IMG/VR virus record: IMGVR_UViG_2561511241_000010
Reading direction: 5' to 3' (one strand)
DNA: 37,472 nucleotides
DNA from: a virus
Lineage: Duplodnaviria; Heunggongvirae; Uroviricota; Caudoviricetes
Shown here: piece by piece, positions 3,036 to 22,596 of the stretch
How positions within the stretch are numbered: the first letter of the stretch is position 1
Layout: every line of letters starts with the position of its first letter
Made by a program: the position numbers and the translations under genes
The notes under the pieces: model-generated
The model's input: the letters and a program-made list of their open reading frames with translations, nothing else
Databases searched by the model: none
What the model was told of the DNA's origin: nothing

Positions 3036-3398
3036 ATGAAACTTTTATTCGCTGCAGCGTTTTTGCTTGTGGCTGGATGTACGAACAAACACACAGATAA
3101 CGCATTCCAGATGGATTACCCGGTTGATGCCTCTCGTTTATCGCTCGGTGGTGATATTCACGTAAATATCGACTGTGCCACCAAAGAGGTGGAAGTTATT
3201 TCAGACAGTAGCAACGGAATATTCAGCCGCCATATAAAAAAAAGGTTAAGTAATATTTGCTACAATAAACCGGATAAGCTGGATGTCGTTTATCGCTTTA
3301 ATTCAGCAAAGGGCGTGAAACAAGATATGATTGCAACTCATTACCCACGAGTTCCTCCCGTGTCAAATCCCAACAAACTGAGAGATGGGGATTCTTAG
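3036..3398 (+). CDS. Lipoprotein moron, antisense to the tail operon
   Basis: N-terminus MKLLFAAAFLLVAGC is a signal peptide with lipobox; AGGAA ribosome-binding site; AT-rich upstream region; 3' end overlaps the convergent ORF 3363..4004. Confidence 0.6.
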   Translation: MKLLFAAAFLLVAGCTNKHTDNAFQMDYPVDASRLSLGGDIHVNIDCATKEVEVISDSSNGIFSRHIKKRLSNICYNKPDKLDVVYRFNSAKGVKQDMIATHYPRVPPVSNPNKLRDGDS

Positions 3399-4004: not shown

Positions 4005-4303
4005 TGAAAGTTATACACCTCCACATTGAGTGTGATCGCAGGACTGCCGGTTGAGGGCAAATAGTAAGCTGTAAAACCGCCATTATAGGCGCGGCAGTGG
4101 TATTCGTTGACAGTGACGCCAGTCGACACAATTGAGATGAATGAGCCATCCTGGGTTATCCCGACGAAGGAAACGTTTTTCGACGTTTCCCCCGCAGCGA
4201 ATGTTACTGAGGTGCTTCCGATATACCGGATGGCATAATCACTCAAATCAACCGCTATGCGCCCTGCACTGTCCCAGCATTGCAACCCCTGTGGCATTAC
4301 CAT
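4001..4303 (-). CDS. Hypothetical protein downstream of J
   Basis: 100-aa ORF overlapping the J stop (4297..4303) and the next ORF. Confidence 0.45.
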   Translation of the reverse strand: MVMPQGLQCWDSAGRIAVDLSDYAIRYIGSTSVTFAAGETSKNVSFVGITQDGSFISIVSTGVTVNEYHCRAYNGGFTAYYLPSTGSPAITLNVEVYNFQ

Positions 4304-7300
4304 AACCCCATTCTGACACGCAGTACGTTATTGCTGTCATAGATACGAATGAGAGTGCTGGTTATCAGCATCCTCCCGCCCCCGGCCACGCCGTTAATTT
4401 CGAACGTTCCACTCTTATCAAGCTTCCAGCCTGCAGAACCAGCCACATAGTTATTCGACTGGATATAGTTGCCGATTTTGGCATTGCTGATGGTCCCGTC
4501 ACCGATGACCGTATCCCTGATAATGGTTTGGCCATTCTGGATAACGAACGGGAGCGTAACATTACCGCCTGCCTGGGTCATGACAGCAAAACGGTCAGCC
4601 AGGAACAGAACCTGTGACTGCATGCCCTCTGGCGTATTCTGAACACCAATGCCCATTCCGGCTGCGTACTGGTTGCCATTAGAATCAACAGCTACCTTGA
4701 TGCTGTACATTGCATTCAGGTTGTTATTGATGTCGGCTGATACCTGGCTGTTCTGGACAATATCTGCAGACTGGCCGTTAACCGTGACCTTAAGCGAGTT
4801 AATTTGCGTCGCAGACGCCTGGGTGAAGTCAGCAAGTGTCTTCGACAAGTCAGTGACATTCGCTATGTTTCCACCGGCACTGGAATCTAGGGTACGCAAC
4901 GACTCAGCGACAGCCTTACTGGCTTCGGCCATGACATTGTCGACTCGCTCAATACCGGCTTTATTATCACCATACTGAACGCTCAGAAGGTTGCGCTGGT
5001 TAACCTGTGCGAGCGTGCTGGTTATCAGCGCGATGGCATTGTTTTGAATACCACCGTTGGCCTTATCCGTTCTTGCTGCCAACTCCTCCAGGCGGGACGC
5101 CACTGACGAAGTCGTGTCTGTGACAACCTGCCGCAGCGTGGTGATATCAGCAGTGTTTTGTGAGCTGGCTTGTTCAGCTGCGTCTGCCTTACCTGATGCA
5201 GCATCAGCTTTACTCGAAGCCGAATCAGCTTTATCAGAAATGACCTGAGTACTCGCAGTGAGCTGATCAACAGCAGTTGCCCTTGCCTGAGCTTCATCTG
5301 ACAGAGCCTGCCTTACCTCGGTAATTCCCGCTTCGTTCTGCGCTGTTTTTGCCTCAAGACGGATAACATCCGTTACGCGTGCCTCCGTCTCAGTAGCGAT
5401 AACCTCCCGGAGCTGTTCGAAAGTCGCAGAGTTAGCGCCCTGTTGGGCTGTCTGGCGCACGACAACATCGGCAATAGCCAGCGCGTTGCCGATGATTGCT
5501 TCTGCTGTCTGCTTATTCGAACCTACGGCGGCAGCCAGCCCATCGGCGTTCTCCTTAATTGCTTCAGAAAACTCGGCCAGTTTCTCGCTACTGTCTACAG
5601 CACTTTCAATCAGATCCTTAAATACCTCGGAATCTTTAATCTCCTCCAGGATCGCATCGGTGATATCGGATACATCGATGCTGGCCTGACCGCGCACAAA
5701 GTCTGTATACCCTGATTCGTTGCCGCTGCGGTCCACCAGCTGCGCGCGATACCAGAAAATCTGCCCAGCCTTAAGGCCCATCTGCTGATATTTGCGCTGC
5801 GGGTAAGGCACATCGGCCAGCAGTATCGCATCGTCTTCGGTACCGGTCAGGCTGTACTGAATTTCCGTCTTCAGCGTGTCGTCGGTATTCGCCGGGAATC
5901 CCCAGTTCAGCTCGATACCAAATACAACGTTTTCAGAAGCGATGAAGCCAACCGGCTTCGGTGGGCTGCCCACTTTACCCGTCAGCGTTTTCTCTTCTGA
6001 AGAGCCCCATCCGGAAGAAATTTCTGCGGCATTGATTGCGCGCACGCGCACCAGGTAGCGCCCTGCATAAATCCCCTGGACGTCGAATGATGTGGTGGAG
6101 CTGCGCGGCACGTTAACCCAGTTCCCGTCGTTGCGGCGCCATTGCGCTTCATAGGCGATAGCGTTCTGCGCCTGGTCCCAGCTCACGCGCATGGTCTCAA
6201 CGCTGATATTTTGCTGCACCACGGAAAACGAGCTGATCACGATGTTCGAAGGCGGCGACTGGTTACCCGGCGGGATTACACTCACCGGCCGCTGGTCGAT
6301 GATGGCTCCGGTATCGATGCGGGCATATTTATCCGGGTCGTGCCATGCGCCAGTAATCGAGAAAGTGCCATCATCCTTTTCGGAAACGCTGACAACACGA
6401 TACTGCTGCGCATAGAGCTCGTCAGATTCAACCACCCAAACAGCTTCGGCCTGTGGCGTCTCACTGTATGCCGTGGTGACTGTGACTGATTCCCCGTTTA
6501 CGGCCTGAATGGTCCTGCTCTGCGACACTCCGGATGGTAAGTTGAGAATAAGGCGATCACCTGCTGCTGCATCTGCCACGCGGTCAAGTTTGATAACGCG
6601 ACCGTTAACGGCGCTGATGCGGCCGCCCATAACCTTTCCGGAAAGCAGCTCGTCTGCCACGGCGATGATGTAGCCCGGCTGCGGAATGTTGCCGTCCAGC
6701 CCGACATCAAACGAAACAACACGATCCTTGTTGTTGGTGAGAATACCCCAGCGTCCCTTTCGGTTAGCTTCTGACTGCCTGGTGCAGCCGATGGCTGTCA
6801 TTTCCAGCTGATTGAAGCCGTACCGCGCCACCAGCGCCTGCTCAAATACCGGCTCCATCGCGTCGGCATAAGCGTTCCCCGGATCTGACCATGAAACCAG
6901 TGCTGTGGTGTAGCGGCTTTTCGTGGTGCTGCTCGAATAGGTGAAGCGACCGCCAACAACGTTAGCGCGCGTGTAGCTGTAATCAACATCGCGCGGCATG
7001 TCAGCCAGGGCCACAATCTGATCCCCGCCCCAGTAGGTCATGCCACGGAAGATAGCGGCAAAATCACGCAGGACTGTGTAGGCGTCGTTCCGGTCCTGAA
7101 TGTACACGTTGCAGGTATAACGTGGTTCGGTACCGTTGCCCCCTTTGCCGTCTGGTACCATCTGATCACAATACTGGGCAACCTGATAAAGCGTCCATTT
7201 ATCAATATTCGCAGCGGTCAAACGGTGCCCGAGGCCGAACCGGTCAGAAACAACCAGATCGTAAAAAATCCACGCAGGGTTATCCGTCCATGCCCACTTA

Positions 7301-8121
7301 AACGCACCGGTCCATGTACCGCTATAAGTGCGGGTTTCAGGGTCGTAGGTATCTGGAACGCGGATAACGCGGCCGCGGGGCTCGCAGGAGATCTGAGGGA
7401 TAGAGCCGTTAAACTGGCTGGAATCGAATTCGATGTAGAGTAACGCTGTGTTTGGATATCGTAACTTGGCGTCAATCACCTCAGTGAAGCTCTGCAGCGT
7501 CATCGTGTCGCCGATCTTCGCGCTGTTGGCATCAGAGGTAATCTTAGGCAGACGTATTGTCCAGGTGCTGCCAGCCTGCGGTAAATCAATGCGGTGGCTG
7601 CGCTCATAACCAGACGTCGTTTTGCCGGTCACGCTGGTATTGAGTACCGTCTGCCATGTGCCGCCGTCCGTCTGCAGGTCAATCGCATAATTGACCGAGT
7701 AACCCACCAGATCACCGTCGTCCTCCTGTTTGAAAAGCGAGGGCCATTTCAGACGCAGGCGAACTGCTGAAAGCTGCGTATTGGTAAAGGTGCGCGTCCA
7801 TGCTGTAGCGCTTGATACCTCAGTTCCTACGCTGATTTCGTTTTCGGTACCGGGAATACCCTGAATATATTTTTGGGCCTGCGTTCCCGCGCGAAACTCC
7901 CACGTTACGCCGCTGAAGTTTTGGGAGCCGTCAGCATTCTCCAGGGCTGTTCCGTCCAAATAGATATCTTTGCCGGTTAGCTGCCCTGCAAACTCCCCTT
8001 CGCCAAGCGCAACGAGGATTTTTGCCTTCGCTACAGATTGCAGATCATCAGGCTGTTCGGTAGGGGTTCGTGAACTGGAGCTGCCGCCCTTGCGGCCCTT
8101 TAACACTTTATCTGTAGCCAT
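4297..8121 (-). CDS. J: Host specificity / central tail fibre protein J
   Basis: 1274 aa; N-terminal region resembles lambda gpJ; follows the I-K-L-M order. Confidence 0.9.
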   Translation of the reverse strand: MATDKVLKGRKGGSSSSRTPTEQPDDLQSVAKAKILVALGEGEFAGQLTGKDIYLDGTALENADGSQNFSGVTWEFRAGTQAQKYIQGIPGTENEISVGTEVSSATAWTRTFTNTQLSAVRLRLKWPSLFKQEDDGDLVGYSVNYAIDLQTDGGTWQTVLNTSVTGKTTSGYERSHRIDLPQAGSTWTIRLPKITSDANSAKIGDTMTLQSFTEVIDAKLRYPNTALLYIEFDSSQFNGSIPQISCEPRGRVIRVPDTYDPETRTYSGTWTGAFKWAWTDNPAWIFYDLVVSDRFGLGHRLTAANIDKWTLYQVAQYCDQMVPDGKGGNGTEPRYTCNVYIQDRNDAYTVLRDFAAIFRGMTYWGGDQIVALADMPRDVDYSYTRANVVGGRFTYSSSTTKSRYTTALVSWSDPGNAYADAMEPVFEQALVARYGFNQLEMTAIGCTRQSEANRKGRWGILTNNKDRVVSFDVGLDGNIPQPGYIIAVADELLSGKVMGGRISAVNGRVIKLDRVADAAAGDRLILNLPSGVSQSRTIQAVNGESVTVTTAYSETPQAEAVWVVESDELYAQQYRVVSVSEKDDGTFSITGAWHDPDKYARIDTGAIIDQRPVSVIPPGNQSPPSNIVISSFSVVQQNISVETMRVSWDQAQNAIAYEAQWRRNDGNWVNVPRSSTTSFDVQGIYAGRYLVRVRAINAAEISSGWGSSEEKTLTGKVGSPPKPVGFIASENVVFGIELNWGFPANTDDTLKTEIQYSLTGTEDDAILLADVPYPQRKYQQMGLKAGQIFWYRAQLVDRSGNESGYTDFVRGQASIDVSDITDAILEEIKDSEVFKDLIESAVDSSEKLAEFSEAIKENADGLAAAVGSNKQTAEAIIGNALAIADVVVRQTAQQGANSATFEQLREVIATETEARVTDVIRLEAKTAQNEAGITEVRQALSDEAQARATAVDQLTASTQVISDKADSASSKADAASGKADAAEQASSQNTADITTLRQVVTDTTSSVASRLEELAARTDKANGGIQNNAIALITSTLAQVNQRNLLSVQYGDNKAGIERVDNVMAEASKAVAESLRTLDSSAGGNIANVTDLSKTLADFTQASATQINSLKVTVNGQSADIVQNSQVSADINNNLNAMYSIKVAVDSNGNQYAAGMGIGVQNTPEGMQSQVLFLADRFAVMTQAGGNVTLPFVIQNGQTIIRDTVIGDGTISNAKIGNYIQSNNYVAGSAGWKLDKSGTFEINGVAGGGRMLITSTLIRIYDSNNVLRVRMGLW

Positions 8122-8128
8122 ATTGCGC

Positions 8129-8155
8129 CCATAAAAAAAGCCACCCGAAGGTGGC
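8129..8155 (-). repeat. 27-nt hairpin plus T7 element, copy 1 (between I and J)
   Basis: Minus strand reads GCCACCTTCGGGTGGC-TTTTTTT-ATGG; identical to 8784..8810. Confidence 0.7.
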
Positions 8156-8174
8156 CAGAAAAAAGGTTAGTTAT

Positions 8175-8774
8175 CTACTGCTGATCTTCGACATAAATTC
8201 CGGCAGAAATAATCGCTCCGCCTATCCGCCGGCGGCCATATAGGAGCGGAACTGGATAGCCTTGCGCCGCGGTGTTTGTTACACCACCGAATGCGTAGGA
8301 TGCGCGGTTATCTGCGCTTTGTTTGCTTGCCAGACCTGCAGGTTGAGGAGATAGCATTTGGACAACGCCTCCCAGCATCATGGCTGCACCGAATTTCGCA
8401 GCCCCGTACCCCACCGCTGATAGAGTGCCGCCTGAGAAATAGCCAATGGCTACCCCAACAACGACGAGCACGGCGCCAAGAATTGTCTGTAATACCCCGG
8501 CTTTTTTACTTCCGATTACCACCGGGACAATTCGAATAACTTCACCGGTTACCGGAAAACCAAAATCATCCTTTCCGATATTTTTTTTATCTTTAAAAAC
8601 GGCGTAAGTCAGGCCCCTTGCTTTGCTGGTGATCAGGAATTTCTCCAGCCCGTTTATAGTTTTTGTAAGAGAGTTGATCGCCTCAGCGGTTGTGCGTATT
8701 AATCGATGGTGAACCTTTCCATAGGTTTTACCCAAAACACCGCCAAGCTCAATTCGGGTCATGACCTCTGACAT
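8175..8774 (-). CDS. I: Tail assembly protein I
   Basis: 199 aa with Gly/Ala-rich hydrophobic C-terminal half like lambda gpI; position between K and J. Confidence 0.85.
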   Translation of the reverse strand: MSEVMTRIELGGVLGKTYGKVHHRLIRTTAEAINSLTKTINGLEKFLITSKARGLTYAVFKDKKNIGKDDFGFPVTGEVIRIVPVVIGSKKAGVLQTILGAVLVVVGVAIGYFSGGTLSAVGYGAAKFGAAMMLGGVVQMLSPQPAGLASKQSADNRASYAFGGVTNTAAQGYPVPLLYGRRRIGGAIISAGIYVEDQQ

Positions 8775-8783
8775 TTTCTTTCT

Positions 8784-8810
8784 CCATAAAAAAAGCCACC
8801 CGAAGGTGGC
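8784..8810 (-). repeat. 27-nt hairpin plus T7 element, copy 2 (upstream of I)
   Basis: Exact copy of the 8129..8155 element; sits between the lipoprotein stop and the I start. Confidence 0.7.
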
Positions 8811-8829
8811 TTAGCTTATTTTTAACTTT

Positions 8830-9162
8830 TCAAAGGCATGATCTGGCAGCCGTAGCCCAGTGATCGTTCCATCCTTTTGCGACGGCGTAAACTTTAACAT
8901 CGCTTCCGCCTGCTTCTGATTTATCGATATTCACCACTGAAAGGGCGCCGAAAATATCGTCTGATGCTGTTATTTTGTAACCTGACTCAGTTGGTATGCT
9001 GGAGCTTGAAGATCGAAGCTCCACCCATTTAGGGGCCAGGCATCTGTTAACCTGATCTGCACTCTTTGAAGTGTGTTCAGAAAGAATAGGCTTTTGGGAT
9101 TCGAGGGAGTTTACAGAGCAGCCAGCCAAACCAATAACTAGCACCAAGAATAGCTTTTTCAT
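8830..9162 (-). CDS. Lipoprotein inserted between tail genes K and I
   Basis: Internal start MKKLFLVLVIGLAGC gives signal peptide plus lipobox; GGAG precedes ATG 9168/9162; the longer table ORF (to 9330) would overlap K and is rejected. Confidence 0.55.
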   Translation of the reverse strand: MKKLFLVLVIGLAGCSVNSLESQKPILSEHTSKSADQVNRCLAPKWVELRSSSSSIPTESGYKITASDDIFGALSVVNIDKSEAGGSDVKVYAVAKGWNDHWATAARSCL

Positions 9163-9191
9163 TTTCATGCTCCTTTGAAATTTCGTAAAGG

Positions 9192-9902
9192 TTAGCATAG
9201 AGATCTGTGACGTAGAATCTTCATCGTCCTTTCCTGCCAGTAGCCACCATACGGCACGCGCTGGCTCAGATGTCCATACAGGTGGTGCAGCAGCATATTT
9301 CCCTCCAGCAGAATTCCCGCGTGATTCCACTTATCGGCCTGGACCTGCATGATCACCATATCGCCGGGTTTCGGTGGTCCGTCGAATTCACGGAATCCGC
9401 ACTCATACCAGCAATCCTGATAGAAGTTGTCCGGATAGTCGTTTTCCCACCAGGGATAATCGACGCGGTAATCATGGAGTTCGATGCCATGCGTTTGCCG
9501 GAAATAGCTCATTACCAGCCCCCAGCAGTCGAAGTGTCCAAGCACAAACGGACGCTCCAGTAGCGGCAGTTCTCCGCGCGGCTGGATGGTGCGTAAATCA
9601 CCCTCCGGCCAGCTCACAATATGCCAGGGTAAAAGCGTTGCGTCGTATTGCGCTTTATCCAGTTCGCTAGGTTGCGTTGTGGCGTCAGGGTGACTGTGAA
9701 CGATGGCGATCACCGTTCCCCAGTCCTCAGCAGCTGCGTAGTCTTCTGGGCAAAGGACAAAATTGTCCTCCGGCGCCGCGGCAAGATTCCGGCACGGGAA
9801 ATAACGTTCAACGCGGCTTTTCTGCGCCACCACGCCGCAACACTCATGAGGAAATTCAGCTGCAGCATGCGCCATAATCGCATCGATGGTTTTCTGACGC
9901 AT
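9192..9902 (-). CDS. K: Tail assembly protein K (MPN/JAB plus NlpC/P60-like)
   Basis: 236 aa with the HSHP metal-binding motif and a cysteine-peptidase-like C-terminal region as in lambda gpK. Confidence 0.88.
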   Translation of the reverse strand: MRQKTIDAIMAHAAAEFPHECCGVVAQKSRVERYFPCRNLAAAPEDNFVLCPEDYAAAEDWGTVIAIVHSHPDATTQPSELDKAQYDATLLPWHIVSWPEGDLRTIQPRGELPLLERPFVLGHFDCWGLVMSYFRQTHGIELHDYRVDYPWWENDYPDNFYQDCWYECGFREFDGPPKPGDMVIMQVQADKWNHAGILLEGNMLLHHLYGHLSQRVPYGGYWQERTMKILRHRSLC

Positions 9903-9903
9903 A

Positions 9904-10662
9904 TCAACTCCTGATCAAAGACGTGCCCGGGAAGCCACCAAATGAGAGTTCGTTATTTTCGCCGAATCGGAGTTTGCAGGCCGTCAGCGTGCCGTTGCAT
10001 TCATCCAGCGACGGATCGCTTACCGGGTTGTTGTTTTTGTCGAAATAGCGGGTGCCGGCATAGTCGCAGCCGTCGCCTGTACGATATTTATTCCGGATGC
10101 ACCAGGTACACAGGGAATGAAGCTGTCGCGTCGGGATCATTTGCCCCTGCAGGTCCATCGGGCTGGACAGAGCAAATTCAACGGTTTCACCGGCAAGCTC
10201 GCCCGTTTTCCCGTCGATATACCACACCTGCAGCTTTTCCTGAGTCGGGTCTGCTGTGGGGTTGCCGTCTGCGAAATTTCTGGCATCGAGATATTTCTCT
10301 TTTGTGTCGTGAATAGTGACTTTCGCCTGCAGCAGATCGTCATACGCAAGACACAGGGCAGAAATGGAGCTTTCGATGTTCGCAACCGTCAGTGATGGCG
10401 TTGCATTGCTCCCACTGGTTGATTTCTCCAGACCTTCCAGTTGATATGGCCAGGCGGCATATTCATTTCCCTGCCACCAGATTGGTTTCGCCGGAAGCTT
10501 GGACTCATCCCCACCAGCGGCGATGATTTCCGCTTCTGTGTGGGGAATGCTGTAATTGTGAAAGCGGAGAACGTCCGTTAGCCCAAAGGAAGAACCGTCC
10601 ACCTCAATCAGGCGAACATCGTTTCCGGATTCCAGCTTCTGATAATCTGCGTTTAAGCTCAT
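9904..10662 (-). CDS. L: Minor tail protein L
   Basis: 252 aa resembling lambda gpL, including the conserved C-terminal cysteine cluster. Confidence 0.88.
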   Translation of the reverse strand: MSLNADYQKLESGNDVRLIEVDGSSFGLTDVLRFHNYSIPHTEAEIIAAGGDESKLPAKPIWWQGNEYAAWPYQLEGLEKSTSGSNATPSLTVANIESSISALCLAYDDLLQAKVTIHDTKEKYLDARNFADGNPTADPTQEKLQVWYIDGKTGELAGETVEFALSSPMDLQGQMIPTRQLHSLCTWCIRNKYRTGDGCDYAGTRYFDKNNNPVSDPSLDECNGTLTACKLRFGENNELSFGGFPGTSLIRS

Positions 10663-10997
10663 GGTTTAAATGCCTGGATGAATGTTGCTTCAAGGTTGAA
10701 TTTCCCCGCGCCCAGCCCGGTGGGTTTATACGTTTCGCAACGATATAAACCCAAAGGCTCGAGCGGCGGCTTCCACTGAAAGGCTTTCGTTCCTTCATGC
10801 CTGTCGAGAAAAGACTTAATGGCAGAAATGTAGGTTTCGTTGCCAGTGAAGTTAAGCGTCCACTGCTGAGTTCTAGTGTTCAATCCATCCCCTGAAACCT
10901 GCTCATATCCATCGCCAAACTGGGCTTTCCTGACGCGGAAACTTGTATCAGCCTCCGCGTTAATCCGTGGGCACCAGGTGAAAGTTTCAATGGCCAT
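10659..10997 (-). CDS. M: Minor tail protein M
   Basis: 112 aa; motif RKAQFGDGYEQ parallels lambda gpM RKVRFGDGYSQ. Confidence 0.85.
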   Translation of the reverse strand: MAIETFTWCPRINAEADTSFRVRKAQFGDGYEQVSGDGLNTRTQQWTLNFTGNETYISAIKSFLDRHEGTKAFQWKPPLEPLGLYRCETYKPTGLGAGKFNLEATFIQAFKP

Positions 10998-10999
10998 AA

Positions 11000-13900
11000 T
11001 TATCGGGTTCCTTTCATTGCGTTCCAGATGTCGCCGCCGGGACGAATGTCACGCATCACATTCTGCTTATAACGTCGATCAACAAATTCCCCGACCTCGG
11101 CACCAAATTGCTCAAGGCCTGGAGAGGCCTGAGTTTGAGTGTTGCCGTTGCCATCGATGGTGATATAAACCTGTGGCGCCGAAGATACAGACTGACCGCC
11201 GCCACCTCCGACCGCACGAACGCCGAGAGAACCATCCGGCGCGCGGGTAAGCGGCATGATCGCCTCAGGCCCAGCCTCGCCCATGATTCCGGCACCGCCT
11301 TTTGCGAAAGCGAACATGGTGGGGTTTCTGACGATCCCATTACTGAAAGCGCTCAGAGAGGGGGAGTCATAAACGCCGCCTTTGGCGTTAAACTGGAAGT
11401 TCGATCCGTAACTGGAAACCGCCGTACCGGTGCTGGCTGATGCTCCCGCACCGCCCCCGAAGAAGCTGCCTACACTGCCGATGAGAGAGCCAAAGATGCC
11501 AGAACCGGAAGAGGCCCCACCCATCGCGCTAACCACCGCCATCTGCAGAGCCACTTTTTCGATAATCTGCAGGACAGAAATACCCCACGATTTCCAGCTA
11601 ACCTTATTGCCTTCTAGCATTGAGGTGACGTTACCAAACGCGCTGTCGAGTGTGGTTTTCACCCCATCAGAAACCGTGCCGGATACGTTACTGATTTCAT
11701 CAAACCAGTTTGCATAGCCGCGTGATACTCCGGACATCCAATCCGCTTCAGCTGCTGCAATAGCCTTGTATTTCTTATCCAGAGCATCGAGGGCTGCGGC
11801 GCGCTGCGCGATGGCCTCGGTCCCGCCGTCCGTTTTAGCAAAAACACGGTCGATCTGTTGCGTCTCGTCGAACCGGCTGCGCTGGCGATCGCTCATGCCT
11901 GCAGTTTCGGTTGTCAGCGTCGCCTCATCCCTGAACTTTCTGGCCGCTTCAGTTAAATCCTTCAGGGCATCAGCTTGTTCGCGCTGCTTGCGCACGTTCT
12001 CGTCGGCTTTTTGCGTCCATTTTGCCAGCTCTGCTGATGATGCCTGGATCGCCCTGCGCTGCTCGTCGGTCCATTTAGTGCCTGCCTGGTGCGATGCAGC
12101 GTAAAGCTCCGAGGCTTTTTCGCCTTCCGTGGCCCGAACGCGTTGCACGTCAATAGCCACGCTCAGATCGGCCATTTTCCGGGAATACTGTTCGGCGGTG
12201 CTGGCCGCTTCGCGCTCGGCTTTACTCTGCGCATTTGAGGCAGCAGTGGAGGTTTTTTTTGCTTCTGCAGCTGCTGCATCCTTTTTGGCTGCCTGATCCT
12301 TGTTGTAGATGTACTGTGTATAAAGCGCCCCCGTCAGCTTCAGGTCTTCTGCTTCGTAGACGTGCTGCTGATGGAGTTTCTCTAATCCGCTTAAGCTGGC
12401 CAGCTCATTATCGCGACGCGAGCGCTCCAGTGCAGTTTGCTGTTGAGGCGTTGCGTTCGCCAGAGAGACAACTGGCCCGGCATACTGCGGCGGCTTCGCG
12501 CCAGCGGTCGCAGACATTGAGCGGTTAAGCAGGTCATACGCACCTTTCAAGATAGAGACTGCGCCAGCCTGTTCGATAGCCTTTTGCGTGGCCAGATCGC
12601 TGGCATTGTTTACCAGTTTCTGCGTTTGCTCGACTTTTGAGGCTGCCTGTTCGCGCTGGTACTCCAGCTGGTTCAGCTTATCGGTCAGCTCGATGTTTTT
12701 GGCCATGATGTCGGCCTGGCCCATGAAAGTGTTAATCAGGGTCAGCGTCGGATGGCGGTTGTAGTCCTGCTGGATTTGGTCAACCGCCTTAAGGCTGTCT
12801 TTCACCTTCGCGATCTGAGAGTCGAGGTCGGCCAGGTCCTGTTTTTGCGCCTGTAAAGATGTACGGGCATCGGCCGCGGTCGAACGCAGGCCAAGCACCG
12901 ACATCTGCTGGAGCTTGGTGTTGATCTCGTCGAGGTTGTTGGCAAAACCTACCGCCTCACGGTGCACCTGCTGGGTATGCTGATACAGGCCATACATCGC
13001 AGCGCCGGCACCGATAATCACTCCAGGCCAGCCCCCGAGAATACCAAGAACGCCACTACCCAGGCGGGACATCACTGAGGCTGTATTGGTGAGGTTATTA
13101 ACGGCCGAAGTCCTGCCAGCAAGCGCCGTATTCAGTGATGCCTGAGCAGCAGCAAGATTACGCTCAGCGACAATCTGAGCCTCAATACTCGTCGCCGCTG
13201 CACGCGCCTGTTGAGCGCGGTAAACAGCCTGGCGACCAGCAGCAACGCTAACCTGAGCTCCACGGACCTGAGCCTGCGCCAGCGCGACCTCGGCGGCCGT
13301 ATTAGCGAGAACTGCCCGGGTTGACTGAGCAACGCTGCCGACCATGTTGCCAAAATAACGAGCGAGGCCAACACCAACCAGAATACCGGCTGTATTTGCC
13401 ACATCATCGATGTTATTCGCCAGGCCATCCAGCACGCCGGAAAGCGTTGATGATGCGCCGACCGCATCGTTCGCCCCGCCAACCCATGCAAGGAAGGCGT
13501 TTTGCACTTTCTGTGCAGATCCGCTGATGGATGCAGGAAGGGTGTCGAATTCTTTACGCAGGATCTCGACATTGGTCAGCAGCGGGACGATCTTGTTTGT
13601 CGTCAGTTCGCCGTTGTTGGCCATATTTCGCAGGCCACCAACAGTGGTACCCAGCCCATCAGCCAGCAGTTTCGCCAGGCGGCCGCCGTTCTCCATGATG
13701 GAGTTAAATTCTTCGCCTCGCAAAACGCCTGAGCCAAGCGCCTGGCTAAGCTGGGTGATAACAGAGCTCGCCTCTTCGGTACTGGCGCCAGACAGCTTCA
13801 GTGAGGTTGCTACGGTTTCCGTAACTTTTGCGACGTCAGCAGAAGCGTAACCGGCATCACGCAGGGACTGTGCAATTCTGCTGTACAGATTGCTGTTTGC

Positions 13901-14281
13901 CTCGAGGGATGTTCCGGTGCGCTGGCTAATTTCCATCAGCACGCGCTGGGATTGCACGTAATCCTCACTGGAAGAGGACGCAAGGCGAAGACGCCCATTC
14001 AACTGGTTCCACGTGTCGGCAAACTGAATCAGCTGATGTGTGGCAAATGCACCAGCCCAAGCACCGGCAAGCCCGGCAGCAGAAGATCGCACGGTTGCAA
14101 GCTGAGAATTCAGGTCAGCCAAAGACCGCTGAGTTTCACGCGTGGCCGCTGCAGCTTTTTTCCCGCCCTGTTCCATAGTGCGGTAGTAATCGGTTCCCAT
14201 ACGGGACGCTCTGGCGATCTCTGACTGGAAAGAAGAAGAGTTCGCCGAAATTTTGATGATTAGCTCGCGCAGCGTTGCCAT
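11000..14281 (-). CDS. Tail tape measure protein
   Basis: 1093 aa, Ala/Gln-rich coiled-coil character with Gly-rich C-terminal part; lies between G/T and M. Confidence 0.9.
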   Translation of the reverse strand: MATLRELIIKISANSSSFQSEIARASRMGTDYYRTMEQGGKKAAAATRETQRSLADLNSQLATVRSSAAGLAGAWAGAFATHQLIQFADTWNQLNGRLRLASSSSEDYVQSQRVLMEISQRTGTSLEANSNLYSRIAQSLRDAGYASADVAKVTETVATSLKLSGASTEEASSVITQLSQALGSGVLRGEEFNSIMENGGRLAKLLADGLGTTVGGLRNMANNGELTTNKIVPLLTNVEILRKEFDTLPASISGSAQKVQNAFLAWVGGANDAVGASSTLSGVLDGLANNIDDVANTAGILVGVGLARYFGNMVGSVAQSTRAVLANTAAEVALAQAQVRGAQVSVAAGRQAVYRAQQARAAATSIEAQIVAERNLAAAQASLNTALAGRTSAVNNLTNTASVMSRLGSGVLGILGGWPGVIIGAGAAMYGLYQHTQQVHREAVGFANNLDEINTKLQQMSVLGLRSTAADARTSLQAQKQDLADLDSQIAKVKDSLKAVDQIQQDYNRHPTLTLINTFMGQADIMAKNIELTDKLNQLEYQREQAASKVEQTQKLVNNASDLATQKAIEQAGAVSILKGAYDLLNRSMSATAGAKPPQYAGPVVSLANATPQQQTALERSRRDNELASLSGLEKLHQQHVYEAEDLKLTGALYTQYIYNKDQAAKKDAAAAEAKKTSTAASNAQSKAEREAASTAEQYSRKMADLSVAIDVQRVRATEGEKASELYAASHQAGTKWTDEQRRAIQASSAELAKWTQKADENVRKQREQADALKDLTEAARKFRDEATLTTETAGMSDRQRSRFDETQQIDRVFAKTDGGTEAIAQRAAALDALDKKYKAIAAAEADWMSGVSRGYANWFDEISNVSGTVSDGVKTTLDSAFGNVTSMLEGNKVSWKSWGISVLQIIEKVALQMAVVSAMGGASSGSGIFGSLIGSVGSFFGGGAGASASTGTAVSSYGSNFQFNAKGGVYDSPSLSAFSNGIVRNPTMFAFAKGGAGIMGEAGPEAIMPLTRAPDGSLGVRAVGGGGGQSVSSAPQVYITIDGNGNTQTQASPGLEQFGAEVGEFVDRRYKQNVMRDIRPGGDIWNAMKGTR

Positions 14282-14298
14282 ATTTCACCCATAAAAAA

Positions 14299-14314
14299 GC
14301 CCGCAGCCGCGGGC
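14299..14314 (-). terminator. Intercistronic hairpin plus T-run between T and tape measure
   Basis: GCCCGC-GGCT-GCGGGC followed by TTTTTTAT on the minus strand. Confidence 0.4.
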
Positions 14315-14315
14315 A

Positions 14316-14579
14316 TCAAAGACTGGACATCCATTCTTCAAGTTCAGAGACTTCAGCGCCTTCTTCCTGCTCACCCCATTTCAGCATCACGTCAGGAATG
14401 GTGAATTTCCCGCCCTGAGAGTTCAGCATTGCAACGGAGATCTGCGCCGCCTGAGCATCGGCGCGCCAGTCACCAATCGGACTGATGCGGTCGAACTCGA
14501 TCCACATTTTGAGCTCGCTGGCGGTCATGGTCTGGCGCAGTTCGTGGAGAGTACGCCCCAACCGGAGCGCCAGCGACAT
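14316..14579 (-). CDS. Tail assembly chaperone T segment, expressed as a G-T fusion by -1 frameshift
   Basis: Frame is open from the slippery site at the end of G through this ORF; the frameshifted read GKAVKQPLTFFLMSLAL joins the MSLALRLG ORF. Confidence 0.7.
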   Translation of the reverse strand: MSLALRLGRTLHELRQTMTASELKMWIEFDRISPIGDWRADAQAAQISVAMLNSQGGKFTIPDVMLKWGEQEEGAEVSELEEWMSSL

Positions 14580-14602
14580 CAGGAAGAAGGTCAGCGGCTG
14601 CT

Positions 14603-15004
14603 TTACGGCTTTCCCGCTTCTTCCTGGCTCATGCCGAGATTGAGGGCCTGAGCCAGCAGGCGGGAGTGCACAGGACCATAAATTTTAGATACCTGCTCCT
14701 GATCCTCATCGCTGAATACTCGCTCGCCGTTTTCATCCAGCAGAACGTCAATAAACAGAACCACATCAGCCTCTTTGTTACGCAGAAACTTTTCCGCCTC
14801 CGTCAGCGTCGGTGCCTCTTCGCCCTCGGCGAGCTGGGGATTAACGATCTCCCGGAATTTCACCCAGGCATCGCCAGAGGGTTCACGCAGCGTTACCTTT
14901 GCGCCATCCCATTCAGGGACCGTGATACCTTCTTTGGTGCGATAGGCTTTCGATGCTGTAAGCGCCACGTTGCGTAATGAATTCTGTGATGTTTTTTGCG
15001 GCAT
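14603..15004 (-). CDS. Tail assembly chaperone G
   Basis: 133 aa, acidic, immediately upstream of the tape measure; ends ...EEAGKP with the slippery heptamer in its last codons. Confidence 0.8.
   Translation of the reverse strand: MPQKTSQNSLRNVALTASKAYRTKEGITVPEWDGAKVTLREPSGDAWVKFREIVNPQLAEGEEAPTLTEAEKFLRNKEADVVLFIDVLLDENGERVFSDEDQEQVSKIYGPVHSRLLAQALNLGMSQEEAGKP
14609..14615 (-). other. Programmed -1 ribosomal frameshift slippery heptamer G_GGA_AAG
   Basis: GGGAAAG, identical to the lambda G/GT slip site, positioned two codons before the G stop. Confidence 0.7.
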
Positions 15005-15034
15005 TTCATTTTTCTCTTGTTACATGATCGAAGG

Positions 15035-15057
15035 GATAAAAAAAGCGGCCGAAGCCG
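15035..15057 (-). terminator. Hairpin plus T-run downstream of the major tail protein gene
   Basis: GCGGC-TTCG-GCCGC followed by TTTTTTTAT on the minus strand. Confidence 0.5.
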
Positions 15058-15058
15058 C

Positions 15059-15529
15059 TCAGGAACCAGACGCGTAGATGCGTTTAGGTTTGCCGCGTAC
15101 ACGCAGAGAATAGGTAGCGCCAACAACGGAAGAGGTTGCAGCAGACCATGAGCTCTGGCGTACCTCCACCAGCACGTAGAAACCGTTACCAGACGGGAAT
15201 ACCACGCGCAGCGCGCGCAGTTCGTCATTTTCGTAAGCGGTCTGCAGTGCCTCCTGTGCTGCTTCATCGCCAACCCAGTTACGGGTAATGCTCATTTCAG
15301 CAGGCGCGGCGAGGCCGTTGGTTTGCTCCTGTTCAGTTGAGCACAGCGTGGTTACGTCGATATCCCCTTTTTGACCGCCTGTGAAGGTGATCTCCTTTGT
15401 TGCACAGGCCGCTTCCAGCCAGGTAACACCAGCCCCCGGGAAACCTGAGGCGTTAAAATCCTCGGCGGTTACGGGTGCGTCGGAGACGGCAAAGGTCATC
15501 CCCTTTGTGACTTCATACTTACTGGTCAT
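15059..15529 (-). CDS. Major tail (tube) protein
   Basis: 156 aa in the position between head-tail joining genes and the G/T chaperones. Confidence 0.65.
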   Translation of the reverse strand: MTSKYEVTKGMTFAVSDAPVTAEDFNASGFPGAGVTWLEAACATKEITFTGGQKGDIDVTTLCSTEQEQTNGLAAPAEMSITRNWVGDEAAQEALQTAYENDELRALRVVFPSGNGFYVLVEVRQSSWSAATSSVVGATYSLRVRGKPKRIYASGS

Positions 15530-15583
15530 GGTTTCTCCAGTTAAAAAAAAGGCCGCCGGAGCGGTCTGTTATGGTGGGTAAAG

Positions 15584-15931
15584 TTAAACGGTTACCTGAA
15601 ATTCGAGCGTTGCCCGGTGATAGCGCAGATCAGGCTCATAGCCCGGCGTTTTCACAATGTTTTCCGGCTTCAGCACCTGCAGTGCATCAAGCGCCATATT
15701 CCTGATCGTGCGCGCTTCAGTGATGGTGCTGGAATAAACATCAACCTGCACAGAAACGGCTGATTCTGCCTGACCGCAGAGAACGTCAGCGGCCACGTCG
15801 GTAATAATCGAGAAAATTACCCAGGGCGGCGAGACTGAAGGCTTTCCGTCACTGCCGAGCGGCGCAACGTAGGGATAAACCTGCCCTCCGGCCAGCGGCG
15901 CCAGCAGAGGATAGAGATCGTCTTCCGTCAT
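15584..15931 (-). CDS. Tail completion / terminator-like protein
   Basis: 115 aa in the head-tail joining block; assignment is by position. Confidence 0.5.
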   Translation of the reverse strand: MTEDDLYPLLAPLAGGQVYPYVAPLGSDGKPSVSPPWVIFSIITDVAADVLCGQAESAVSVQVDVYSSTITEARTIRNMALDALQVLKPENIVKTPGYEPDLRYHRATLEFQVTV

Positions 15932-16377
15932 TTGCTCAATGCCTCGTCAATGGCCTGGTTCATGCGCCTGATCGCAACCTCCGTCGCCTGCTCCTGGCGA
16001 ACATCGAACGCGGGACGAATGAAAGGGTGTGGTGGCATGTTAACGGTTCCCATTTCAACGAATCGCCAGTAAAAGGCGTTTCTCGGGTTATTCGCCTTCA
16101 TCGTGTTATCGCTATTGCCGGTGCGCGGGTTAACGCCACGAATATGGACGCCGGAAGAAATTTCCCCGCGGCGTCGGCTTTTTTGGGTCACCACCACCAC
16201 GTTTTTTTTCAGTTTCCCGGTGCGCACTGGTGCGCGTGCGATCACCTCTTCCTTAAGCACTTCGGCACCGGCGCGCGTAGCATCACGCAGAACCTTGTTG
16301 TTTTCAGCACGGCTAAGCGCCTCCAGATCCTTTGCGATGTCATTCAATCCGGAAAAATCTAGGCTCGTCCCAATCAT
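15928..16377 (-). CDS. HK97 gp10-like head-tail joining protein
   Basis: 149 aa; position and overlap-coupling (15928..15931). Confidence 0.6.
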   Translation of the reverse strand: MIGTSLDFSGLNDIAKDLEALSRAENNKVLRDATRAGAEVLKEEVIARAPVRTGKLKKNVVVVTQKSRRRGEISSGVHIRGVNPRTGNSDNTMKANNPRNAFYWRFVEMGTVNMPPHPFIRPAFDVRQEQATEVAIRRMNQAIDEALSK

Positions 16378-16712
16378 TTTTCAGCTCCCGTTTTGCAAAG
16401 GATTTCCAGGCGAGTGCCGGTCGCATTTGCTACAGGAGGACCGATGATATTTAGCACCTGACCTTTATACGGGCCGCTGAGCACTTCCAGACGAGAAGAG
16501 GCGTTCAGCTCAGCCCTGAAGCGCATCCAGACGCGAATGGTTGCCTGCGCAGTTTCCGCGCCGCCTGACATCTGCTCTCTGCCGCTGATCCCCTTTACCT
16601 CAGCCGGGACCGGGTTGCCACCTGTCCACGATTCAACCGGCTGACCAGATGGATCGCGCGAAGTCGTGAAGGTGAGAATTTTTACCCGGTGCCTGAAACG
16701 TCCAGGTTCCAT
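16374..16712 (-). CDS. Head closure / head-tail adaptor protein
   Basis: 112 aa; position in the HK97-like joining module. Confidence 0.6.
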   Translation of the reverse strand: MEPGRFRHRVKILTFTTSRDPSGQPVESWTGGNPVPAEVKGISGREQMSGGAETAQATIRVWMRFRAELNASSRLEVLSGPYKGQVLNIIGPPVANATGTRLEILCKTGAEK

Positions 16713-17038
16713 CAGGAGCCCTCCTCAGGTTCAGATTTACCGCGCCAGTTGCGATGGATGAACATCATCCGTTCTGCGGCGGCGTTCTCATAAAGCTGTA
16801 CTTCGCTCTGCGCGGTCCTGTGCTCGAACATGTCCGCAAACACCAGCAGTACGGCGCCCTTCACTGCTGCAGGAATGTCAGTTGCCGCTTTCCATGTCGG
16901 TTCATCACACCACCGGTAGCAGTAGTCAAAGGCTGCCTGTGCGTACAGCGTGATCAGCTCGTCCCTGTCATCCTCCTCAAACTCAATCTGCTGTTTGAAA
17001 AGGGGGAGGCTAATTACATCCAAAACATCTATCGCCAT
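16712..17038 (-). CDS. Head-tail connector (gp6-like) protein
   Basis: 108-aa acidic protein directly downstream of the major capsid gene. Confidence 0.6.
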   Translation of the reverse strand: MAIDVLDVISLPLFKQQIEFEEDDRDELITLYAQAAFDYCYRWCDEPTWKAATDIPAAVKGAVLLVFADMFEHRTAQSEVQLYENAAAERMMFIHRNWRGKSEPEEGS

Positions 17039-17040
17039 AC

Positions 17041-17065
17041 GTTAAAAGGGCGGGTTACCCCGCCC
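17041..17065 (-). terminator. Hairpin downstream of the major capsid gene
   Basis: GGGCGGG-GTAAC-CCGCCC followed by TTTT on the minus strand. Confidence 0.45.
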
Positions 17066-17072
17066 TCCTCCA

Positions 17073-18230
17073 TCATGAGCCAGAAGAGAAAGTGCCCTTG
17101 ATGATTGCCGTCGGGCGATAGTGCGCCAGCGCAAGGCGTTCTTCACACAGGATGGTCAGCATGTTTTTCACGAAGTTGTCGCGATCTTCGCGGCTGACTT
17201 CTACGGTGGCATCCATGCGATCCCACACCTGTGAGGCCATATCAAAACCGCCCACCGTAAAGGTGCCGGCGGCTTGCGCCTTAGTCGGAACCACTGGCAG
17301 GCCCCACATGATGTTGCTGGTAAACGCCTGAGGACCACCGAAGATATAGCGGCCTTCGTTGTCTTTCAGCAGCGCAATGTTGTGCCAGTCGCGCGGGTTC
17401 AGGACGATACCGGAAGCGCTAAACTCAGACTCTGTCACCTGGTAAATAGCGTGAGCGATGATGTCAGCACGGGTGTCACCAGTGGCATTCAGCGAGGTGT
17501 CGTAGGCGGTTGCCACTTTGTTCAGACCTTCCAGGTTATCCCCGGTACCGTCGCCGTTCAGCAGTTGGCCCTCTTCCTTCAGCGCCAGGCCATACATCAG
17601 ACGGCCGTTGACGTATGACTGCAGCATTGGCGCATCGTCCATCACCTGACGTGATGCCTGCACCCAGTGCGCGATAGTCTTCACGTTCGCGGTCTGCTTG
17701 CTGAATGTGATATCCGATTCTGGCTTAAGCGCTTTCTCAGCCACCACATCGGCGTTATTGGTAAACACCTCTTCACGCACATATTCCAGAGCGTTACTGG
17801 AAATGCGGCCCTGAGCCAGCAGGTCACGGATGGTCAGACGGCGCAGGCCCGGCATGATAATTCCCGGGATCTGCATAGGCTGGATCAGTGCGCCAGCAGA
17901 GTCAGCGTCACTGCCGAGCGACTTATTGAACGTCTTCGCGTCGAAGGTGCCCTGTTTACCGTCCCATGACTTAATGAGCTCTTCAGCAGCTCGTTCAGAG
18001 AAGGATTTCTTCTCACCCGGATTTTCAGCGCCGGATGCCAGTTTCTGTTCAAGATCGAAGAGGCGGGTACCGGATTTGGTCAGTTCTTCCTGTACCTTCA
18101 CCAGGTCGGCCTGCAGCTGTTTGGATACCTTACCCGTGCTTTCGATTTCTGCTTTCTGTGCATCGAAAAGCTGGGACATTTTCTGCTGGGATTCTTCAAT
18201 AGCTTTTTGAATGAGAGCGAGTTCAGACAT
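17073..18230 (-). CDS. Major capsid protein, HK97 fold
   Basis: 385 aa with N-terminal coiled-coil delta domain followed by a capsid domain; follows the protease gene. Confidence 0.9.
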   Translation of the reverse strand: MSELALIQKAIEESQQKMSQLFDAQKAEIESTGKVSKQLQADLVKVQEELTKSGTRLFDLEQKLASGAENPGEKKSFSERAAEELIKSWDGKQGTFDAKTFNKSLGSDADSAGALIQPMQIPGIIMPGLRRLTIRDLLAQGRISSNALEYVREEVFTNNADVVAEKALKPESDITFSKQTANVKTIAHWVQASRQVMDDAPMLQSYVNGRLMYGLALKEEGQLLNGDGTGDNLEGLNKVATAYDTSLNATGDTRADIIAHAIYQVTESEFSASGIVLNPRDWHNIALLKDNEGRYIFGGPQAFTSNIMWGLPVVPTKAQAAGTFTVGGFDMASQVWDRMDATVEVSREDRDNFVKNMLTILCEERLALAHYRPTAIIKGTFSSGS

Positions 18231-18232
18231 AA

Positions 18233-18922
18233 TTAATTACCTAAATTAGAAGGGAAAGATTTAATGCTCTGAAGCAGAGCGTTGATTTGTGCTTCGTTTC
18301 CGTCGCCCTCGGACTCGCTCCGAATCGCTGACTTAAACCGGGCTATTAGCCCAACTGCCTGTGATTTGGTGAGCCCGACTGAATCCCTCAGCCAGTTCTC
18401 CACATCACGAATTGTTTCAATGCCGTCGACACTCTTCATGGCTGCGATGCCAGCCTGTTCGTTGGCGGGGAAGGTGCAGACGCTGATTTCACGCAGAGCC
18501 TGGATATTCTTAAAAATGCGGCCTGTTGGAATGATGGTGTAATCGTCTTTCGCAACGGAAAAGCCAACCGACATACCTTCAACCGTACCGTGCTGCATTG
18601 CCGCTTTCAGGTCGGCGGCGCCGCTGTGCCCTGGGGTAAGTTGACCGCGCACATACAGGCCTTTTTCGTCTTCGGCCAGGCTGTCCCATTTACCAACCGG
18701 CAGCTCCCACGTCTTGTGGTTGAAAAACATCGCCACTTTGCGGGTCTGGTTCGCCAGTGCGTATTTAAACGCCCCGGGCAGAATGATGTCGCCATCGGAA
18801 TCGGTGTTATTAAAAACAGAGGCGTAGCCTTCAAAAATCCCCTGTTTACCGTCACCGGTGAATTTTATTTCTGTCTCGTCGAAGGACAGCGTTTTTACGA
18901 TCTCAGGCATTACGGCCCCCAT
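18233..18922 (-). CDS. Prohead maturation protease (HK97 family)
   Basis: 229 aa between portal and capsid genes. Confidence 0.85.
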   Translation of the reverse strand: MGAVMPEIVKTLSFDETEIKFTGDGKQGIFEGYASVFNNTDSDGDIILPGAFKYALANQTRKVAMFFNHKTWELPVGKWDSLAEDEKGLYVRGQLTPGHSGAADLKAAMQHGTVEGMSVGFSVAKDDYTIIPTGRIFKNIQALREISVCTFPANEQAGIAAMKSVDGIETIRDVENWLRDSVGLTKSQAVGLIARFKSAIRSESEGDGNEAQINALLQSIKSFPSNLGN

Positions 18923-18927
18923 AAAAA

Positions 18928-20205
18928 TTAAGCCCCGTTATTACGGGGCTCTTTGTTGGTTCCTAAATCGGTGATCGGCACGTATTGCGACTGGCGCATA
19001 GCCACATCGCCACCCGGCAATGGCGGGAGGTTGTCCGTTCGTCGCATCTCGTTGATGGTGCGTAGCCCTGCCTCTCCCATTGCCTTCATAAAGGCTGCGC
19101 GGGATGCCGAATCGCCCCTCAGCAGGCCGTCGAGATTGTGCTCAGCATGAATGCGGCCAACATCCTTAGCGGGAATAAGCCACCGCTGAATGCTGTTTTC
19201 CCACCGGGAGATATAGGGCTGCAGGGTGTACTGCAGGAAGCCGAGATTCTGCTGCTCAATGCCCGATCCCCAGCTCGTTGATTTCTCGACGTCGCCGACA
19301 AGGTGAGGCGGTACGCCAAAGAATCGCGCCAGTTCACTTACCTGAAATTTTCGGGACGCCATCATTTCGGCATCCTGCGGCGTTACGCCAATTGCCGATG
19401 TGGAAAAGCCCGCTTCCAGAATCCAGAGGCGTTTTTTAACCGGACCGCCGGCGATCTCTTTGAAGTTCTCTTCGACCTGCGAGCGCTGCTGTTCAGTCAG
19501 CACTTTTTCGCCGGTTGAGAGGATTTGCGGAGACTTGGCGCCGTTGGCAAAGAAATCTCGCTGCTGGTCCTCCATCGCAACTGCCACACCTGCCGATTTA
19601 CAGGCAAAAGCAATTGGTGACAGGCCGACCAGCCCGGTGAATCCGAAACCTTTAAGGTGAAAAATCTCTCTCTGCGAAAAGTCGGCGTATTCGCTGTCGC
19701 GTTGATAGCGATAAACCACTTTTTTCCCGACGAGTTTCACATCCATATTGGCAGACTGAAGCGGGAGAAGGCTGATCACGTCACCCGCGCTGTTGCGGTC
19801 CACCAGTGCATACGCGTTACCGTAGAAACAGAGCTGCATCGTCATGGCCTCCCTGAACTCCTGGGCGGTCATGTACTGATTCGGTGAGTAGCGCAGCAGT
19901 CGCGCCAGCGGATTGCTCAAACCCACTTTTTTGCGGTTGTCATTCTGGTCGGTTTCGAAGACATCAAGCGGTAAGCATGCCGTGAGCGTTGAAATCAGGC
20001 TCACGCAGCGCCAAACCGTCGAAATTTGCAGTATCCGTTCATCGTTAATGGATGAATCGCCCAGGTGTCCATAGGCCGAAACAGGCCCCGTCTGTGAGCC
20101 CTGATTTGGGGTGACTAAACGCCCGCCGACAAACCAGGACTGCAGCCTTGCCCACCAGCCGTTATTGGTTCGCAGGTCAATCGTGTATTTAGGTTCTTCC
20201 ATCAC
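18928..20205 (-). CDS. Portal protein
   Basis: 425 aa between large terminase and protease; 4-nt overlap with the terminase gene. Confidence 0.9.
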   Translation of the reverse strand: MMEEPKYTIDLRTNNGWWARLQSWFVGGRLVTPNQGSQTGPVSAYGHLGDSSINDERILQISTVWRCVSLISTLTACLPLDVFETDQNDNRKKVGLSNPLARLLRYSPNQYMTAQEFREAMTMQLCFYGNAYALVDRNSAGDVISLLPLQSANMDVKLVGKKVVYRYQRDSEYADFSQREIFHLKGFGFTGLVGLSPIAFACKSAGVAVAMEDQQRDFFANGAKSPQILSTGEKVLTEQQRSQVEENFKEIAGGPVKKRLWILEAGFSTSAIGVTPQDAEMMASRKFQVSELARFFGVPPHLVGDVEKSTSWGSGIEQQNLGFLQYTLQPYISRWENSIQRWLIPAKDVGRIHAEHNLDGLLRGDSASRAAFMKAMGEAGLRTINEMRRTDNLPPLPGGDVAMRQSQYVPITDLGTNKEPRNNGA

Positions 20206-21716: not shown

Positions 21717-21722
21717 AGTCTT

Positions 21723-22208
21723 TTATCCGTGCTTGGGAAAGGCGATCAGGTTGTCGTCCTGGCCCTGATGCTCGTTTTTCGTGTTTCGTGCATCACGATC
21801 ATTCTGATTGCGTTTCTTCTGGTCGCGGCTTTCACCGTTGGTTGCGTGGGAATGGATCTGCAGGTCACGGCGCTGAGCCAGGATAGTTCGCTGCAAATCA
21901 GGAATTTGTTTGCGGAGGTTTTTAATCAGCGCCTCATTTCTCGCTTCACCGCGCGCGCGTTCTTCTTTACGCAAATCTCTGCGTAAAACGGTGAGATAGA
22001 GCTGGTTATTTGCCAGTTCTACAGCGGCCAGAAGGTCGGCTGGCGTCCAGCTGTCCAGAGCTTTCGATCTGATATTGTCATGCCAGAATGGTTCGGCTTT
22101 TTTTTCCAAACCTGCATGGGACGGAGGATCGATGGTGTCCACTGCTGCATTTTTCATGGCCTGAACCGCTGCCGCCGAACTGTCGGAACGGGTTCGTTTA
22201 TCTGCCAT
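21723..22208 (-). CDS. Terminase small subunit
   Basis: 161 aa with basic C-terminus, immediately upstream of the large terminase. Confidence 0.7.
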   Translation of the reverse strand: MADKRTRSDSSAAAVQAMKNAAVDTIDPPSHAGLEKKAEPFWHDNIRSKALDSWTPADLLAAVELANNQLYLTVLRRDLRKEERARGEARNEALIKNLRKQIPDLQRTILAQRRDLQIHSHATNGESRDQKKRNQNDRDARNTKNEHQGQDDNLIAFPKHG

Positions 22209-22392: not shown

Positions 22393-22596
22393 CTATGCCG
22401 AATGTTTGTCTACCTGTTCGAGTTTCCGATCGCCTTTCCCGTGCCCGGAGACAACATGCCATGAGACGGTCACTGTCGGCACCTCCTGCCCTACAGCGTG
22501 CGAGAACTGAATGGATGTCACGTCCTTCATCTCCACGCCATCAATCACCAGGCGAACGAATTTTCCATCGCGGTATTCAATGCTGAGGTCTTTCAT
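22393..22596 (-). CDS. Hypothetical small protein
   Basis: 67-aa ORF whose start overlaps the HNH stop by one nucleotide. Confidence 0.35.
   Translation of the reverse strand: MKDLSIEYRDGKFVRLVIDGVEMKDVTSIQFSHAVGQEVPTVTVSWHVVSGHGKGDRKLEQVDKHSA

Follow-up and report, generated by a model that had tools for sequence, protein, structure and literature searches.

The two identical 27-nt copies that flank the tail assembly gene I in the stretch of viral DNA analysed here (the window, 37 472 nt in full) are probably Rho-independent terminators situated at junctions of a Q-antiterminated late operon, which would be read through after Q. The anatomy of these elements, their conservation, the covariation of their stems, the linkage of one of them to an insert and the presence of a Q gene are all directly visible, and from these features we infer termination, read-through and insulation.

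In E. coli ETEC1749 (NZ_CP122712.1), a prophage adjoining ssrA matches the window at 100% identity. The window begins in smpB, and ssrA, encoding the tmRNA, lies at 698-1060 within the + strand region 1-1061; this tmRNA was the sole match when the whole window was searched with Rfam covariance models at the gathering score, with no match at the hairpins. The head and tail genes are of the HK97/HK022 type and share 82-95% DNA identity with those of LMessi, mEp234, HK97, HK022 and others, and the K-insert-I-J arrangement was found in one of 5426 complete E. coli genomes at a coverage of at least 80%. The late genes are all carried on the - strand. Around the repeat they follow the order minor tail gene K (9192-9902, a C40 peptidase), an accessory moron-like ORF of 110 aa (8830-9162), the pre-I hairpin, gene I (8175-8774), whose 199-aa product is annotated by PGAP as 'tail assembly protein' and is homologous to the I proteins of HK97 and lambda, the pre-J hairpin and, finally, the tail tip or host-specificity gene J (4297-8121). 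Elsewhere on this strand, three ORFs lie between the lysis and terminase genes (22596-24963), those of a family-2 glycosyltransferase, a hypothetical protein of 196 aa and an HNH endonuclease; in the late region of a lambdoid phage, this is an atypical position for the first of them. The window also contains an unusual tract rich in G, GGGGAAGAGGGAAAGGGGGGTAAGGGGGGATTGGGTGTAGGGGTAGG, at 32285-32345 (- strand) after a hairpin at 32345-32364, within a non-coding stretch of about 430 nt upstream of a 539-aa ORF (30402-32021).

A Q-type late antiterminator gene is present at 28637-29437 on the - strand, its 266-aa product matching PF03589 (E = 1.4e-52) and phrog_127 and being annotated by PGAP as 'antitermination protein'. 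About 90 nt downstream of this gene lies a hairpin followed by U7 (28522-28550, - strand), with promoter-like sites at 28677-28649 and 28613-28584 upstream of it. Because of its position downstream of Q and after these promoter-like sites, this hairpin is probably tR', which would end a short late-promoter transcript, and most likely not an intercistronic hairpin, as had been supposed. Between this probable tR' and the holin genes, the segment 27804-28381 (- strand) carries a TerB-family ORF (PF05099; phrog_632, 'tellurite resistance') and a DUF3927 ORF, in what is a classic accessory-gene slot downstream of PR'.

The 27-mer CCATAAAAAAAGCCACCCGAAGGTGGC was located by exact search at 8129-8155 and 8784-8810, with no third copy in the window when up to three mismatches were allowed and no match in 100 shuffles. 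The first-pass annotation, which had described both identical copies and their coding-strand form of GCCACC-TTCG-GGTGGC plus T7, is upheld on these two points. Read on the - strand, each copy gives GCCACC-UUCG-GGUGGC, then U7, then AUGG. In the pre-J element (8129-8155) the hairpin spans 8155-8140, the U7 8139-8133 and the AUGG 8132-8129; the stem comprises 7 bp when the G8156/U8139 pair is counted, and a 7-nt gap leads from the 27-mer to the J ATG at 8121. The pre-I element (8784-8810) consists of the same 27 nt, with a stem that reaches 8 bp (8812-8793) and a 9-nt gap, containing a GGAG Shine-Dalgarno sequence, before the I ATG at 8774; these two distances correct the 8 to 10 nt given earlier. 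The computed hairpin energies are -12.3 kcal/mol for pre-J and -13.2 kcal/mol for pre-I, and both sites display the stem and tract of an intrinsic terminator, with 6-8 bp including five G-C pairs, a 4-nt loop and U7 directly 3' of the stem. The AUG contained in UUUAUGG is in a different frame from the downstream gene and is without a Shine-Dalgarno sequence, and some lambda-type loci have CUG or ACG in its place. A T7-type RNase III site, with its stem of roughly 20 bp and often an internal loop, was ruled out, as the stems are only 6-8 bp long.

At pre-I, pre-J and the post-V hairpin described below, the UUCG loop is closed by a C-G pair, and in this these sites resemble the C(UUCG)G tetraloop hairpins that Tuerk et al. 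reportedly described in 1988 in phage intercistronic regions. Unlike in those hairpins, the loop here varies among relatives, in which TCCG, TCAG, TAAG, TGCG and TTTG are found, indicating that the identity of the tetraloop is not essential.

The comparison of the pre-J element covered the window and 80 IMG/VR loci that encode a relative of I at 74-100% identity. Of 78 loci, 77 keep the hairpin and its U-run, which invariably lie directly against the J start whatever the spacing between I and J, be it a gap of 46-58 nt (68 loci) or an insert of 317-879 nt (10 loci). The U-tract does not change over 29 variants of the element. In 33 distinct sequences, pairing is seen in 95.1% of the alignment cells, and double, compensatory changes occur at three pairs, exchanging GC with AU and AU with GC or UA. 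The covariation score was reached by none of 500 shuffles and controls slid along the alignment paired at only 28-60%, statistics that are optimistic, given an alignment anchored on the hairpin and the relatedness of its sequences.

A hairpin is found at the same place in the I-J intergenic region of lambda, with the form AAACCGCC-UGCG-GGCGGUUU in RNA and AAACCGCC-TGCG-GGCGGTTT in DNA (L085:1460-1510, corresponding to lambda 15459-15509). Its stem differs by compensatory changes, its U-run is interrupted and its loop takes the variants TGCG, TCCG and TCAG among 80 lambda-type loci; no description of it was found in the accessible literature. That the stem has been kept despite an interrupted U-run suggests that it may be selected for something besides termination. 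Taken across both groups, the pre-J element is best described as the resident hairpin of the I/J junction, common to HK97-like and lambda tail modules.

The pre-I hairpin is tied to the DNA inserted between K and I. The K-I gap measures 417 nt in the window, compared with 8-11 nt in 14 loci; the hairpin is found in none of these 14 loci without an insert and in 53 of the 65 loci with one (at least 321 nt). The inserted ORF, whose product bears a lipoprotein-type signal (MKKLFLVLVIGLAGC), corresponds to WP_223861874.1 and phrog_914 (unknown function), and a Pfam search of it gave no match. With 46.2% GC, it contrasts with K (54.7%) and J (54.2%). In the 33 loci where a relative of this ORF occurs (52-100% identity), it always lies directly upstream of I, and the hairpin changes with the identity of the protein, from GCCAC-UUUAU-GUGGC at 52% and GGCCACU-UGCG-AGUGGCC at 75% to GCCACC-UCUA-GGUGGC at 85% and GCCACC-UUCG-GGUGGC from 89% upward. 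Different K-I inserts carry different stems, and a U-tract is present after many unrelated ones. On this pattern of linkage, the pre-I hairpin is the putative 3' terminator of the inserted accessory ORF, diverging along with it. An origin of pre-I as a recent copy of the terminator of an I-J insert was rejected, the lipoprotein-like ORF never being found on the I-J side. As for function, the ORF may serve the prophage as an accessory or exclusion gene. A standard scan for a sigma-70 promoter before the ORF found none, the best match being 9/12 with a 19-nt spacer, inside K; with no convincing promoter found, any independent transcription in the prophage state, for which a terminator would be needed, is hypothetical.

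That the two copies are identical, a point stressed in the earlier description, turned out to carry no particular meaning. Among 81 loci, the exact 27-mer is present at both positions in 7, before J only in 19 and before I only in 7, and the two sites have drifted independently, with loops and U-run lengths that differ within single genomes (loop pairs TTCG and TCCG in L005, TAAG and TTCG in L018, TTCG and TCAG in L028). Concerted evolution or gene conversion of the copies was ruled out by these independent differences. Judged from the sequences at hand, the 27-nt identity is incidental and without a function of its own, both copies carrying the commonest state of a recombining family of putative junction terminators, and the two are apparently identical through shared ancestry rather than through any special function.

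Comparable hairpins accompany other junctions of the operon, all on the - strand. At the T/H junction, the pre-H hairpin GCCCGC-GGCU-GCGGGC with U6, followed by AUGGGUGAAAUAUG at the H start (14293-14314; HK97 8398-8422), was found in all 82 loci examined, of which 80 have no T-H insert; the two loci with such an insert (HK97 gp15 and L236) have another stem with the same tail of U-run and AUGGGUGAAAUAUG. The major tail gene V is flanked by a hairpin on each side. The pre-V hairpin, GACCGC-UCCG-GCGGCC with U8 (15543-15566; HK97 6692-6719), is conserved in 72 of 76 loci, and the post-V hairpin, GAGCGGC-UUCG-GCCGCUU with a U-run (15036-15060; HK97 7443-7462), which overlaps the stop of the major tail tube gene, in 75 of 76. 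In the window, GCGGCC replaces the GCGGTC of the relatives (72/76) at pre-V, breaking one pair and weakening the stem to -7.5 kcal/mol. The post-capsid hairpin (17041-17068; HK97 5192-5213), which ends immediately ahead of the head-tail connector gene, combines the strongest stem, at -19.5 kcal/mol, with a run of only four U. A further hairpin with the tail AAUUUUUAUGG lies in the last portal codons, before the protease gene (18924-18951; HK97 3309-3335). By strict criteria, four terminator-like sites are found on the coding strand of the structural operon (4297-22208), compared with 0.24 +/- 0.47 expected from 200 dinucleotide shuffles, and all four lie at gene junctions.

Hairpins at these late-operon junctions are already known, having been annotated since publication of the HK97 and HK022 genomes. 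The HK97 record (AF069529) lists a 'putative terminator' at seven late-operon junctions, namely portal/protease, after the major capsid gene, before and after the major tail gene, pre-H, pre-I and pre-J, while the mEp234 record (JQ182732) lists a 'rho-independent terminator' at both sites flanking I. The present operon shares the same seven junctions with these phages, and the sequences there are homologous or nearly identical; in mEp234, for instance, the pre-J site reads GCCACCTTCGGGTGGC, T6 and ATGGGCGCAATATG. It differs from them in that their pre-I hairpin, ACCACC-TACG-GGTGGT, follows another small accessory gene, so that their two sites are similar but not identical, and in that gp22/gp23 separate I from the pre-J hairpin in HK97. 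Every structural-operon hairpin in the first-pass annotation maps to a junction annotated as a terminator in HK97, and all the sites it had compared with the 27-mer do exist, but its view of them as one uniform intercistronic family does not hold, because pre-I travels with its insert, pre-J and pre-H are resident and the hairpin at 28522 is likely tR'. Missing from its list were the sites at 18930-18951 (portal/protease) and at 15551-15566 plus T8 (before the major tail gene).

The earlier proposal that the two copies look like intrinsic terminators inside an operon is borne out by their full anatomy, by the Q gene (PF03589) upstream and by the compensatory changes in the stem. In the mechanism that we favour, polymerase that has not started at the late promoter or that lacks Q, for example in a lysogen, would stop at the hairpin and U7, and this termination would insulate the tail genes, keeping out transcripts that are spurious or come from accessory genes. 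Once the prophage is induced, polymerase modified by Q would pass all of the junction hairpins. As a secondary effect, the hairpins may shield the RNA upstream of them from 3' exonucleases. In the accessible literature, neither an experimental test of these or related prophage sites nor transcript 3'-end data for them were found; Hfq-bound prophage sRNAs (PMC4104026) and lambda sRNAs (bioRxiv 2024.10.31.621285) all map near PR', none of them at the tail junctions. The phage L genome paper names partial termination, or the blocking of spurious non-antiterminated transcription, as possible roles of such sites, and the two roles offered in the earlier note, Q-dependent read-through or attenuation and RNA stability, have already been published there. 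The pairing of internal terminators with processive antitermination is in itself an established concept. A comparable arrangement is provided by conAn of pLS20, an operon system with more than 20 intra-operon terminators in which the concept of insulation has been demonstrated (PMC8955417). Like lambda Q/N and pLS20 conAn, the present system consists of a long operon with several intrinsic terminators, here predicted ones, downstream of an antiterminator loaded at one promoter, and the proposed role is likewise to stop spurious or sub-operon transcripts, although conAn is unrelated to the Q protein of this prophage. The relation of the pre-I element to accessory genes can also be set against known cases.

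Juhala et al. are said to have described morons, in 2000, as accessory genes inserted between phage genes. They have been characterized as insertions between phage genes with a promoter and a terminator of their own (PMC3594210). The K-I insert is like them in being extra DNA, in its deviant base composition of lower GC content and in ending in its own putative terminator, the pre-I hairpin, but differs in that no convincing promoter was found before it. Because the pre-J and pre-H hairpins occur without any insert, they do not belong to a moron in this phage.

Among the other explanations, a role in RNA stability or processing is possible, if unlikely. The hairpins would block 3'-to-5' exonucleases after endonucleolytic cleavage of the late mRNA, thereby giving segments of the operon different half-lives and so setting protein stoichiometry. 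They do bracket the most highly expressed genes, with the major tail gene flanked on both sides; the post-capsid hairpin pairs the strongest stem with only U4, and the lambda I/J stem is conserved though its U-run is broken. Such a role, however, needs no U6-8 directly after the stem, a feature that is invariant at pre-J, at pre-H and at most insert-borne pre-I sites, and the low-copy proteins I and J do not obviously require a stabilised message. A U-run that never varies at pre-J and that also follows numerous unrelated stems at pre-I speaks for termination and against a hairpin serving stability alone. Within the terminator reading itself, Q-modified polymerase of lambda is highly resistant to terminators over more than 20 kb, which weighs against partial attenuation during lytic growth, in which a fraction of the Q-modified polymerase would end at each hairpin and so lower the amount of distal tail mRNA. 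We consider this very unlikely: seven serial sites along the operon would permit a stepwise reduction, and the phage L genome paper raised attenuation as a possibility for terminators within the late operon, but the essential gene J lies downstream of every hairpin and the positions of the sites fit no simple gradient of protein need. It is next to impossible that the repeat arose by chance or through faulty assembly. The sole weak point is the low complexity of the U-run and AUGG within the 27-mer, but the shuffles gave no match, and one complete RefSeq genome, as well as several independent IMG/VR contigs, shows the same arrangement.

A distinctly unlikely reading takes the unit hairpin-U7-AUGG-N7-AUG as a portable combination of a terminator and a translation-initiation region, a junction cassette that would spread from one late-gene junction to another among lambdoid phages and would be a preferred joint for module exchange and the capture of accessory genes. 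It draws on the wide distribution of the exact 27-mer, which is present in at least 120 viral contigs (IMG/VR L247-L366; for example L250:12209-12235, L352:3725-3751 and, on the - strand, L358), among which the hairpin-T7-ATGG-N7-ATG geometry recurs. In different phages, GCCACCTTCGGGTGGCTTTTTTTATGG precedes J (of several N-terminal types, some of them divergent), I or the gene of minor tail protein M, and in others a tape-measure gene, a tail-fibre gene or a capsid-like ORF. The I-J and T-H inserts, moreover, abut the hairpin directly, with a constant tail downstream. Mosaic breakpoints fall at I|J in 3.2% and at K|I in 2.8% of locus pairs, compared with 0.34% at the hairpin-less L|K boundary, an excess that only hints at recombination joints because adjacent intragenic bins are also raised (K3|K4 2.4%, I3|I4 1.6%) and the locus pairs are phylogenetically non-independent. 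Gene boundaries are, in any case, expected to keep more surviving recombinants with or without a hairpin, and a 27-bp direct repeat around an essential gene is a deletion hazard rather than an obvious benefit.

Termination at the junctions of a Q-antiterminated operon probably remains the better account of both copies, and to the terminators already annotated in related phages the analysis adds two elements. Resident hairpins, at I/J, at T/H and on both sides of V, are separated from the insert-borne hairpin at K/I, and one exact 27-mer is found to recur before many different late genes. If junctions of this kind did act as preferred joints for module exchange, 'moron terminators' would often be resident landing pads, not cargo.
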